Origin: Holosporales bacterium
Lineage (GTDB): Bacteria > Pseudomonadota > Alphaproteobacteria > BNTO01
Assembly: GCA_031257795.1 (NCBI GenBank)
Contig: JAIRNW010000055.1
Span: forward strand, 1-41,363
Direction of reading: 5' to 3'
DNA: 41,363 nucleotides
Made by a program: the position numbers and the translations under genes. Within the stretch, counting starts at the first letter, position 1, and every line of letters starts with the position of its first letter. This document shows, in pieces, positions 1,163 to 2,673 of this stretch. Below the pieces are notes generated by a model, which worked only from the letters and a program-made list of their open reading frames with translations, searched no databases and was not told the DNA's origin.

Positions 1163-1840
1163 ATGAGTGACAAGAAACAAGAAAAATCTGCAGCCGAACC
1201 TGAAAAAGTGGTGGATGGATCCGCCTCAGCGGGCACGACGTTGCTTTCATATTTGGCATATTTTTCTCTTTTTTGCCTCCCATGTCTTGTTCTCTCGGCA
1301 TTGCTGCTTATGGTCGCGGTCCCGCGAGCCTACATTTTCTTTATTCTGACAGCTGGCGTATCTGAACTGCTCGGCGCCAGTGTTTTAAAGTACACGGCCA
1401 ATCTGCTGGCAAAACGAGGCCCACCGGCTACGTCAAAAGGCCGCCTTTTCCTGATATTGACGATTTTTGTAGGAAATTTGTTTTTGTCCTTCGTTCCAGG
1501 AATGTGCTTCCTGCATTTGCTAACCATTGGGAAAATCGTTAGAGACTTAACGTGGGGAATTGGTATAAACGCCTTCTTATTCCTTGGAATTGGCCTGTTG
1601 ACGTACGTTCGGATTCTTCAAAAATCTCAGCAAAGTCAGAACACTTGGTTGATTTTTACGAATTATTTGGCTTTCTTCTTTTTAATTTTCTGTCCGATGT
1701 GTTGGACTGGATTTTTCTTTCTGCTTAAAGCATCTGATTTGTTCAGTTTTATGCTACTGCCCGGAATTGCCGTGGGTTTATGGCTAGGAACAAGCCTGCT
1801 GTGGCACGTGAGGATGAAGGAGAGCAGAGGGAAAGCATGA
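1163..1840 (+). CDS. hypothetical multi-pass inner-membrane protein
   Basis: ORF 1013..1840; the likely start is the ATG at 1163 (MSDKKQEK...). Charged N-terminus followed by about 6 hydrophobic helices. No family recognised. Confidence 0.5.
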   Translation: MSDKKQEKSAAEPEKVVDGSASAGTTLLSYLAYFSLFCLPCLVLSALLLMVAVPRAYIFFILTAGVSELLGASVLKYTANLLAKRGPPATSKGRLFLILTIFVGNLFLSFVPGMCFLHLLTIGKIVRDLTWGIGINAFLFLGIGLLTYVRILQKSQQSQNTWLIFTNYLAFFFLIFCPMCWTGFFFLLKASDLFSFMLLPGIAVGLWLGTSLLWHVRMKESRGKA

Positions 1841-1980
1841 GACCGGAGCCCAAGCAATGGACATATGCTTGAAGAACAATAAAAAAATTTAAGTATAGCG
1901 CAAGAAATAAATTAGTAGTATAGTGAATTGTGAGCATAATGCAGCATGTAGTCTGCCGGTTTTTATTTAAGGAGTTTATT

Positions 1981-2673
1981 ATGACGAACAATGAGTTTTT
2001 TGTGGCTGGGCATAAATCGCGAGCATTTTGTGGCTGGTGGAATAGGTGTCTTTTGTGCGTTTTCGCTTTGTTGGGTTTTGTTTTCACATTTTTAACTGGG
2101 AATGCCGCCACAGGCCCAGCCAAAGTTATGGTTTTTGGAGAGGAGAAGATAGCCGGAGAAAGAACAATAAAGGTAGACGTAATTAAAAAATTAACTGGAG
2201 AGCAGGCAACGCCCTATGGACGTAGTTCCCTGCGCTTCGTTACAAGAAGCAGTCAAGAAGTTAACGTCACATTGTGTGATACCGCAGCGCAAGAGAGATA
2301 TGAAAGTATGTTGAAGAGGTATTCGGATGGAGCCACCGCAGTTGTTTACGTGTTAACCAAAGATGGCGAAAACTATATTAACTATGACCTGGATTTCGCG
2401 GGGAGGCTAGGCAAAGCCAAGGAGAAGCTCGCAAAAGTAGTACCTAACGGACAGCCAGTAATTATTGTTGTTCAGGATGATGGGTATGAATCTGACTCGG
2501 AGGTTCGTGAGGCGGTTTCTGCTACTTTCGGAGACGATACGGCCGTTGTTTTGGTGGATATTAATACTGGTCAAGGAATAGACGCACTTAAGGAAACAAT
2601 TGGCGAAACTGTAATTACAGCCAGACAACAAGCTGCCACACAGCAAAGGGCAGCTCCTATAAAGCGCAGGTGA
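1981..2673 (+). CDS. membrane-anchored or secreted small-GTPase-fold (Rab/Ras-like) protein with degenerate nucleotide-binding motifs
   Basis: aaggag SD lies 6 nt upstream of the ATG at 1981. N-terminal hydrophobic helix CLLCVFALLGFVFTFLTG. KVMVFGEEKIAGERT occupies the P-loop position. LCDTAAQERYESM resembles Rab WDTAGQERF. C-terminal INTGQGIDALKETI resembles the G5 region of TRAFAC GTPases. The NKxD position is replaced by QDDG. Confidence 0.5.
   Translation: MTNNEFFVAGHKSRAFCGWWNRCLLCVFALLGFVFTFLTGNAATGPAKVMVFGEEKIAGERTIKVDVIKKLTGEQATPYGRSSLRFVTRSSQEVNVTLCDTAAQERYESMLKRYSDGATAVVYVLTKDGENYINYDLDFAGRLGKAKEKLAKVVPNGQPVIIVVQDDGYESDSEVREAVSATFGDDTAVVLVDINTGQGIDALKETIGETVITARQQAATQQRAAPIKRR

Follow-up and report, generated by a model that had tools for sequence, protein, structure and literature searches.

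A candidate Rab-like pseudo-GTPase from a Holosporales bacterium, with a putative export or anchor helix at its N terminus

Could a bacterial protein retain the shape of a eukaryotic Rab after losing the residues with which a Rab binds guanosine triphosphate (GTP), and what might such a protein do? The question is raised by P0001, a 230-amino-acid (aa) protein encoded in a 41,363-nucleotide stretch of DNA from a Holosporales bacterium (GenBank assembly GCA_031257795.1, contig JAIRNW010000055.1, positions 1 to 41,363), which we call the window. An earlier note, made from the letters without database searches, had described P0001 as a small-GTPase-like protein with degenerate nucleotide-binding motifs and an N-terminal hydrophobic anchor, encoded downstream of an orphan polytopic membrane protein, here called P0002. 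The reading that we prefer, at a probability of about 55%, is that P0001 is a Rab-derived pseudo-GTPase, exported or membrane anchored, that would act as a nucleotide-independent binding module.

1981 to 2673, plus strand: P0001 gene (1981 to 2670 plus the stop codon, 230 aa), encoding a candidate Rab-like pseudo-GTPase with an N-terminal export or anchor helix

The ATG of this gene has a ribosome-binding site, AAGGAG (positions 1968 to 1973), 7 nucleotides (nt) upstream; a public annotation places the start 14 codons farther upstream and gives a product of 244 aa. Scored with a codon table from 200 long open reading frames (ORFs) of its own genome (reference log-likelihood ratio, 0.22 +/- 0.06), P0001 had a codon-usage log-likelihood ratio of 0.197 and P0002 one of 0.136, and every other frame was negative. 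Because the score is positive in the annotated frame only, both are treated as real genes.

Rab-like sequence and predicted fold of P0001

Searches of several kinds connected P0001 to small GTPases. Pfam matched residues 87 to 125 only, to Ras (21.8 bits, with a cutoff of 21.6) and to Roc (21.3 bits). A phmmer search of the PDB gave more than 100 weak matches; nearly all of the 60 listed were Rab or Arl8 chains, and the best among the matches listed was Rab5A (E = 0.013, P0001 residues 48 to 128). When 1.84 billion representative proteins were searched exhaustively with phmmer at E < 1e-3, five proteins were returned, three of them Rabs: a triple-Rab protein, a Rab-4A-like protein from a sponge (P0005, aligned to residues 85 to 221), and a 198-aa metagenomic Rab with a CC tail (P0006, aligned to residues 38 to 214). 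BLASTP between P0001 and P0006 gave 28% identity across 182 aa; identity to the two closest Rabs is 23 to 28%, and to the remaining Rabs it is lower. A hidden Markov model (HMM) built from 95 Rabs, with the query left out, aligned to residues 85 to 223 and scored 19.1 bits, compared with a maximum of 10.5 bits in 5000 shuffles. Run against a 77-sequence Rab alignment, hhalign gave a probability of 97.1% over residues 85 to 222, and the language-model neighbors of P0001 were Arf/Ras/Roc clusters, including IFT22/RabL5-like ones (0.89 to 0.91).

2122 to 2652, plus strand: predicted Ras-superfamily-like alpha/beta domain (residues 48 to 224), placed by guided AlphaFold, Foldseek, hhalign, and BLASTP to P0006

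Given residues 40 to 230 and an alignment of 100 Rabs, AlphaFold produced a model with a mean predicted local distance difference test score (pLDDT) of 80.5 and a predicted template modeling score (pTM) of 0.79. Its elements follow the canonical order beta1-alpha1-beta2-beta3-alpha2-beta4-alpha3-beta5-alpha4-beta6-alpha5, and it has an insertion of roughly 10 residues after beta4 (residues 128 to 142). Foldseek matched this guided model to Rab7, Sec4, Ral, and KRAS in the PDB (E about 4e-8; target-normalized template modeling [TM] score up to 0.78) and to Ras/Rab clusters in the ESM Atlas (TM, 0.65 to 0.74). The structure and profile searches that the earlier note had proposed thus returned Rab and Ras matches by hhalign and Foldseek, but the model used for the latter is biased by the Rab alignment. 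On these predictions, P0001 very probably has a Ras-superfamily fold.

A number of results weigh against reading P0001 as a Rab-derived, exported binding module. In every genome searched, PF00071 scores similarly on the housekeeping GTPases IF2, LepA, Era, and EngB; taken alone, the Pfam Ras match is therefore not Ras specific. Two of the five library matches, P0004 and P0007, are alpha/beta proteins other than GTPases; they match the C-terminal half alone (residues 93 to 202) at similar E values (8e-5 to 6e-4), and P0007 has a faint vWA-TerF-like match. Masking of switch II (residues 96 to 113) lowered the Rab HMM score to 2.9 bits, a value reached by 40 of 5000 shuffles, and the region comprising beta1, the P-loop, alpha1, and switch I (residues 45 to 95) has no detectable profile similarity (-1.1 bits). 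Because a Rab alignment guided the confident model, it is not independent proof; the unguided, single-sequence model failed overall (pLDDT, 43.5), though its local helices coincide with alpha3, alpha4, and alpha5 of the guided model. Only one residue of the hydrophobic triad through which Rabs bind effectors is kept, as read from the Rab5A alignment (Phe to S83, Trp to C99, Y114 kept), which weakens a simple Rab-mimic role. Export of P0001 was judged by eye and not predicted by a tool. Finally, P0001 has no orthologues, so selection on it is not measurable, and its DNA comes from one sample only.

Some of these results would be expected if P0001 were not a GTPase fold at all and were instead a generic alpha/beta domain with three layers (Rossmann-like or vWA-like) in which a DTAxQE-like stretch had arisen by chance: the score collapses once switch II is masked, P0004 and P0007 match the same half of the protein, and the unguided model failed. 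We consider this quite improbable, since four motif-bearing segments are collinear with those of Rabs over about 175 residues, hhalign assigns its high probability, and the language-model neighbors are all small GTPases. Further, masked BLASTP against two Rabs beat 2000 of 2000 shuffles (34.3 versus at most 23.5 bits and 32.3 versus at most 26.6 bits), figures that are flattered because these two Rabs were chosen as the best matches. A vWA identity was considered in its own right, and no metal-ion-dependent adhesion site (MIDAS) motif, DxSxS, was seen after beta1 on reading the sequence.

The Rab likeness of P0001 is therefore dominated, as far as these comparisons reach, by the DTAxQE/switch II segment, yet is not confined to it. 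The earlier note had raised the possibility that the similarity went no farther than DTAxQE; the profile match extends over residues 85 to 222 and the match to one Rab over residues 38 to 212, with most of the score lying in switch II.

Degenerate nucleotide-binding motifs

To a Rab-derived pseudo-GTPase, the state of the five G motifs is central. The motifs were placed by script and by alignment to Rabs, starting from beta1, KVMVFG (residues 48 to 53).

2137 to 2166, plus strand: G1/P-loop position, GEEKIAGERT (G53 to T62) opposite GxxxxGK[ST], with two or three acidic residues
2278 to 2310, plus strand: G3/switch II, DTAAQERYESM (D100 to M110) opposite WDTAGQERF/Y, the best-conserved segment and Rab-like
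2473 to 2484, plus strand: G4 position, QDDG (Q165 to G168) instead of [NT]KxD, the guanine-specificity motif
2560 to 2589, plus strand: G5 region, INT (from I194) instead of SAK, followed by a conserved-looking TGQGIDAL turn and the start of alpha5

In a gapless alignment with Rabs, G59 stands at the P-loop Lys and E60 at the Ser/Thr; with a one-residue insertion, these positions are occupied by E60 and R61. The phosphate- and magnesium-binding residues of GxxxxGK[ST] are gone under either alignment, and the loop is acidic. The switch I region (residues 70 to 85) aligns poorly and has no G2 Thr in register, with T77 nearby. DxxG of G3 reads D100-T-A-A103, the Gly having been replaced by Ala, and Q104 is kept. 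Neither the G4 motif nor the SA[KL] of G5 is present. The strings on which the earlier note had relied (KVMVFG, GEEKIAGERT, DTAAQE with its Gly-to-Ala change, and QDDG) were all located by script where it had put them. Its likening of TGQGIDAL to G5 fared less well: the sequence exists, but it lies just after G5, and SAK itself is lost.

Features specific to Rabs are also reduced. P0001 ends in AAPIKRR and has cysteines only at positions 17, 23, 26, and 99; none of the Rab prenylation motifs (CC, CxC, or CCxx) was found at its C terminus. The RabF1 to RabF5 motifs (Pereira-Leal and Seabra 2000) were also judged from the alignment: F1 (IGVDF) is absent, F2 is weak, and F3 to F5 are partial (RYESM, YSDGA, and VVYVLT).

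With G1, G4, and G5 gone and DTAA standing in for DxxG, P0001 is unlikely to bind or hydrolyze GTP canonically. The defining motifs were looked for and found altered or missing, and for that reason P0001 would qualify neither as a Rab proper nor as a working GTPase. The pseudo-GTPase reading is thereby supported at the sequence level, and the layout proposed in the earlier note, Rab or small-GTPase-like with lost nucleotide-binding motifs, holds up in alignments and profiles.

Alternatively, P0001 might be a live but atypical nucleotide binder whose remodeled pocket accepts GTP, ATP, or another ligand noncanonically, like some GTPases without NKxD. The retention of D100, T101, and Q104 in switch II would fit such an activity, as would the presence of IFT22/RabL5 among the language-model neighbors; IFT22/RabL5 has an atypical G4. 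Since the P-loop Lys and the magnesium-binding Ser/Thr are both missing from an acidic loop, and since the predicted extracytoplasmic site of the domain, described below, would offer no nucleotide pool, we regard nucleotide binding of this kind as very improbable.

Topology, neighboring gene, and locus

2026 to 2109, plus strand: N-terminal hydrophobic helix (residues 16 to 43, core 23 to 38, by hydropathy), a putative Sec-type signal peptide or type II signal anchor

The ORF and its hydropathy bear out the earlier description of a 230-aa product with an N-terminal hydrophobic anchor. The single-sequence model also forms a helix at residues 15 to 40, with pLDDT values of 72 to 84 for residues 21 to 40. 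Basic residues K12, R14, and R22 precede the hydrophobic core, and K48 is the only basic residue within 15 residues after the helix. TGNA/A follows the helix, five residues before beta1. Judged by eye, the leader would fit a Sec signal, with a basic n-region, a hydrophobic core at residues 23 to 38, and small residues at -3/-1. Because the positive charges lie on the N side of the helix, the positive-inside rule would put the Rab-like domain in an extracytoplasmic position, and the -3/-1 rule points to a candidate cleavage site near 42/43. If this topology is right, the lost GTP motifs take on another meaning, since their loss would suit a compartment that lacks GTP. A lipobox was considered and rejected, as no small residue precedes any Cys in the leader.

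The gene upstream of P0001 and the spacer between the two are as follows.

1163 to 1840, plus strand: P0002 gene (1163 to 1837 plus the stop codon, 225 aa), encoding an orphan polytopic membrane protein with about six predicted transmembrane helices and short loops
1841 to 1980, plus strand: spacer between P0002 and P0001, AT-rich, 140 bp, with AAGGAG at 1968 to 1973

Hydropathy places the hydrophobic segments of P0002 at about residues 26 to 52, 55 to 76, 93 to 120, 129 to 152, 161 to 183, and 193 to 214, and loop charges suggest that its N and C termini are probably both cytoplasmic. No Pfam or NCBIfam family matched it; no homologue was found in 40 relatives or in a word-indexed search of 5.8 billion proteins, which returned self matches only; and Atlas searches gave weak, mixed helical-bundle neighbors, none of them informative. 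Hydropathy and homologue searches therefore agree with the orphan gene of about six transmembrane helices that the earlier note had described. A scan called no terminator-like or promoter-like site within the 140-bp spacer, so cotranscription of P0002 and P0001 is possible. Complex prediction for the two proteins gave a score of 0.00 in a run that had no controls, which is evidence neither way, and a functional link between them is hypothetical and unproven.

Such a link is the core of an explanation in which P0001 has no host target: tethered to the inner membrane, it would form a housekeeping or envelope module with P0002, as a scaffold, a transporter accessory, or a sensor. The two genes share a strand, the 140 bp that separate them contain no terminator-like site, and both encode membrane-associated orphans and have a similar overall GC content of 0.45. 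Against this, the pair is conserved nowhere, adjacency is the sole link, and P0002 has almost no extramembrane mass on which a periplasmic domain could dock. We think this explanation distinctly unlikely.

The distribution of P0001, which the earlier note had suggested checking, proved to be that of an orphan in all genome and protein collections searched. There is no relative in 40 related genomes. A Rab profile, run over ten genomes of the order, revealed none either: P0001 is its sole match in its own genome, and the matches opened in the nine others were Era and EngB/YihA. A pattern scan of 185,579 species genomes returned no relative, a word-indexed homologue search returned self matches only, NCBIfam returned nothing, and nothing among the 1.84 billion representatives is closer to P0001 than eukaryote-type Rabs, at about 28% identity.

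The closest intact Rab, P0011 (in the P0006 cluster; 198 aa, with a CC tail), is encoded on Logan contig L027 (1 to 7457). This contig is densely packed and apparently intron free; it also carries large orphan ORFs and genes for a BspA-type protein of the LRR_5 family (E = 1e-130) and for another Ras-like protein, P0134. In P0134 the P-loop is intact, but EDLMAQE and THAD stand where G3 and G4 are expected; it was rejected as a relative of P0001 because no relatedness was detectable. Parabasalids typically have expansions of BspA-like leucine-rich repeats and large families of Rabs. Either a protist or another symbiont could be the source of the contig.

P0002 and P0001 are two same-strand ORFs between bioB and a spacer rich in repeats. 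Three relatives have bioB; in them, a gene for a pssA-like membrane protein lies upstream of it, preceded in two of the three by a gene for an ATP-binding cassette (ABC) ATPase; because these occupy the place of P0002 and P0001, the pair is lineage specific at this locus. The source assembly comprises 0.91 Mb in 86 contigs and is 89% complete; the window is its contig 16. From this size, within a clade whose genomes range from 0.8 to 1.3 Mb, we infer that the organism is intracellular or host dependent. A search of sequencing runs found the window DNA in one termite gut metagenome run only, probably the source sample, and listed no RNA run. An 8-kb part of this DNA is also present on Logan contig L012, at 100% identity to the window, and thus provides no independent variation.

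The lack of relatives and the nonsyntenic locus could also mean that P0001 is a decaying remnant, a Rab gene acquired from a eukaryote that is drifting toward loss in a shrinking genome with no maintained function. Four of the five G motifs are gone, the protein is an orphan both among nine genomes of the same order and among the 1.84 billion representatives, the GC content at third codon positions (0.41) is below that of the genome (0.54 +/- 0.08), and the locus is not syntenic with that of relatives. We nonetheless consider a remnant unlikely, since the 230-codon frame is unbroken and has a strong ribosome-binding site, the codon-usage score is near the genome mean, and the pattern of hydrophobic core residues still supports a predicted Rab-fold model with a pLDDT of 80. 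Moreover, the newly gained, putative export helix just before beta1 suggests adaptation, not decay.

Three other features of the window were recorded. Upstream of P0002, positions 577 to 725 contain an inverted repeat whose 20-nt arms are 90% complementary and lie 109 nt apart; this repeat probably belongs to the abundant palindromic element family of this genome. On the minus strand, positions 22 to 435 contain a 137-aa ORF that matches no Pfam family and has a hydrophobic segment at its N terminus; its codon-usage score is weak (-0.05), and its status as a gene is doubtful. At 12583 to 14337 on the plus strand is a gene for methionyl-tRNA synthetase (MetRS), the sole relative of which in a pattern scan of genome contigs was on a Sumerlaeota contig, at 34% identity; this lone match probably reflects the limits of the pattern method, and the MetRS may be of a type unusual for the lineage.

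Possible function and comparison with known systems

A Rab-derived pseudo-GTPase of the kind that we favor would be a lineage-specific descendant of a Rab-type protein that has kept the Ras fold and the Rab-like switch II/alpha2/beta4 segment. With the P-loop Lys and Ser/Thr, the DxxG Gly, NKxD, and SAK lost, it would neither bind nor hydrolyze GTP canonically and would be a class-i-type pseudo-GTPase. The Sec signal peptide or anchor would place the domain at the periplasmic face of the inner membrane or, after cleavage near 42/43, set it free. Outside the cytoplasm there is no GTP pool; in such a compartment P0001 would therefore act as a nucleotide-independent protein-binding module, with the N-terminal helix functionally standing in for the missing prenyl tail. 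The most likely use would be at a host interface, as a Rab decoy or adaptor, in a reduced, host-dependent bacterium of the termite gut. A eukaryotic origin and a host target are what we infer for P0001, and a host-mimic role is a plausible, unproven hypothesis.

Genes that might serve an outer-membrane route are present in the genome. The window itself contains a stand-alone secretin (3876 to 5834). Elsewhere, a 265-aa orphan is encoded between a GspE/PilB-type ATPase (632 aa) and a GspF/PilC-type platform protein of 398 aa (contig C66 of the source genome, G000; L020:5459 to 9720, minus strand). Together with the secretin, these genes suggest a minimal type II secretion system, or a machine resembling a type IV pilus, with its parts dispersed through the genome. 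TolC is present. A sheath protein of the type VI secretion system (T6SS), TssC/VipB, was also found (E = 9e-134; contig C78 of G000, 7958 to 8860, minus strand). According to a review of Holosporales that also mentions an uncharacterized termite-gut clade, T6SSs are near-universal in the group. The presence of TssC fits a DUF4280/PAAR-like ORF at window positions 25098 to 25484. No match to PF03135 (VirB4/CagE/TrbE) was found in this 89%-complete genome, a single family that may miss parts of a Dot/Icm system, and FlhA was not found in the genome.

These genes allow a more specific proposal, which we regard as speculative and doubtful: a Holosporales-like symbiont of termite-gut protists would export a nucleotide-free, Rab-derived decoy via Sec and an outer-membrane route, such as the secretin with GspE/F-type machinery, and the switch II segment would capture host Rab regulators. 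Rab-mimicking effectors independent of a type IV secretion system (T4SS) would then exist outside Legionella.

A Rab-derived domain in an unrelated, genome-reduced bacterium of the termite gut would extend the phenomenon of bacterial Rabs beyond Legionella. With its GTP machinery dead and a putative Sec leader where a Rab has its prenyl tail, P0001 suggests that there is a second kind of design, in which a Rab-shaped binding module is constitutive and exported. Unusual as it is, this design is that of an orphan from a single sample. If P0001 has a host target, it could be used as a probe for the Rab regulators of termite-gut protists, which other approaches reach with difficulty. Should it be a decaying remnant, it would instead record, as a dated trace, the passage of a gene from a eukaryote to a symbiont.

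Among known proteins, eukaryotic Rabs (PF00071) share with P0001 a collinear G-domain layout and a switch II of the Rab type (DTAxQERY...Y..GA), and the predicted fold of P0001 has TM scores of 0.7 to 0.78 to Rab7 and Sec4. Unlike Rabs, P0001 has lost G1, G4, and G5, has Ala for the Gly of G3, and lacks a CC/CxC tail; it has a putative N-terminal bacterial signal or anchor helix and an insert of about 10 residues after beta4, and its gene is bacterial. MglA and Rup resemble P0001 in being small prokaryotic proteins of the Ras superfamily, whereas the significant small-GTPase matches of P0001 were eukaryote-type Rabs, unlike what would be expected of an MglA or Rup protein. The pseudoGTPases of eukaryotes, such as CENP-M, pG1/pG2 of p190RhoGAP, the N-domain of AAGAB, and dynein LIC (PMC5593906, PMC12490416, PMC4359372), have a Ras-like fold with eroded nucleotide motifs, and by analogy with them P0001 would be expected to be a constitutive protein-interaction module. 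Those proteins are cytosolic, whereas P0001 is a bacterial orphan with an export or anchor helix and is predicted not to bind nucleotide.

The closest parallel in bacteria is Legionella, in which proteins with Rab/Ras domains, for example, Llo1716 and Llo3288 of L. longbeachae, are Dot/Icm effectors (Gomez-Valero et al., bioRxiv 10.1101/350777; PMC7542358). Comparative genomics of the genus found bacterial Rab and Rho domains, as type IV effectors, to be nearly exclusive to it (10.1101/350777). As with P0001, these are eukaryote-type Rab domains in a protist-associated bacterium, probably acquired by interdomain transfer. The Legionella domains are reported to keep the structural features of Rabs, and a type IV system is reported to translocate them; in contrast, P0001 has dead motifs and a putative Sec-type leader, and no VirB4-family ATPase was found in its 89%-complete genome. 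The lineages differ, and the exhaustive search returned no match between them beyond Rab-level similarity. Judged by its sequence, P0001 is thus a Rab-like pseudo-GTPase design distinct from that of Legionella, found in another lineage, with dead motifs, a predicted Sec leader, and apparently no T4SS.

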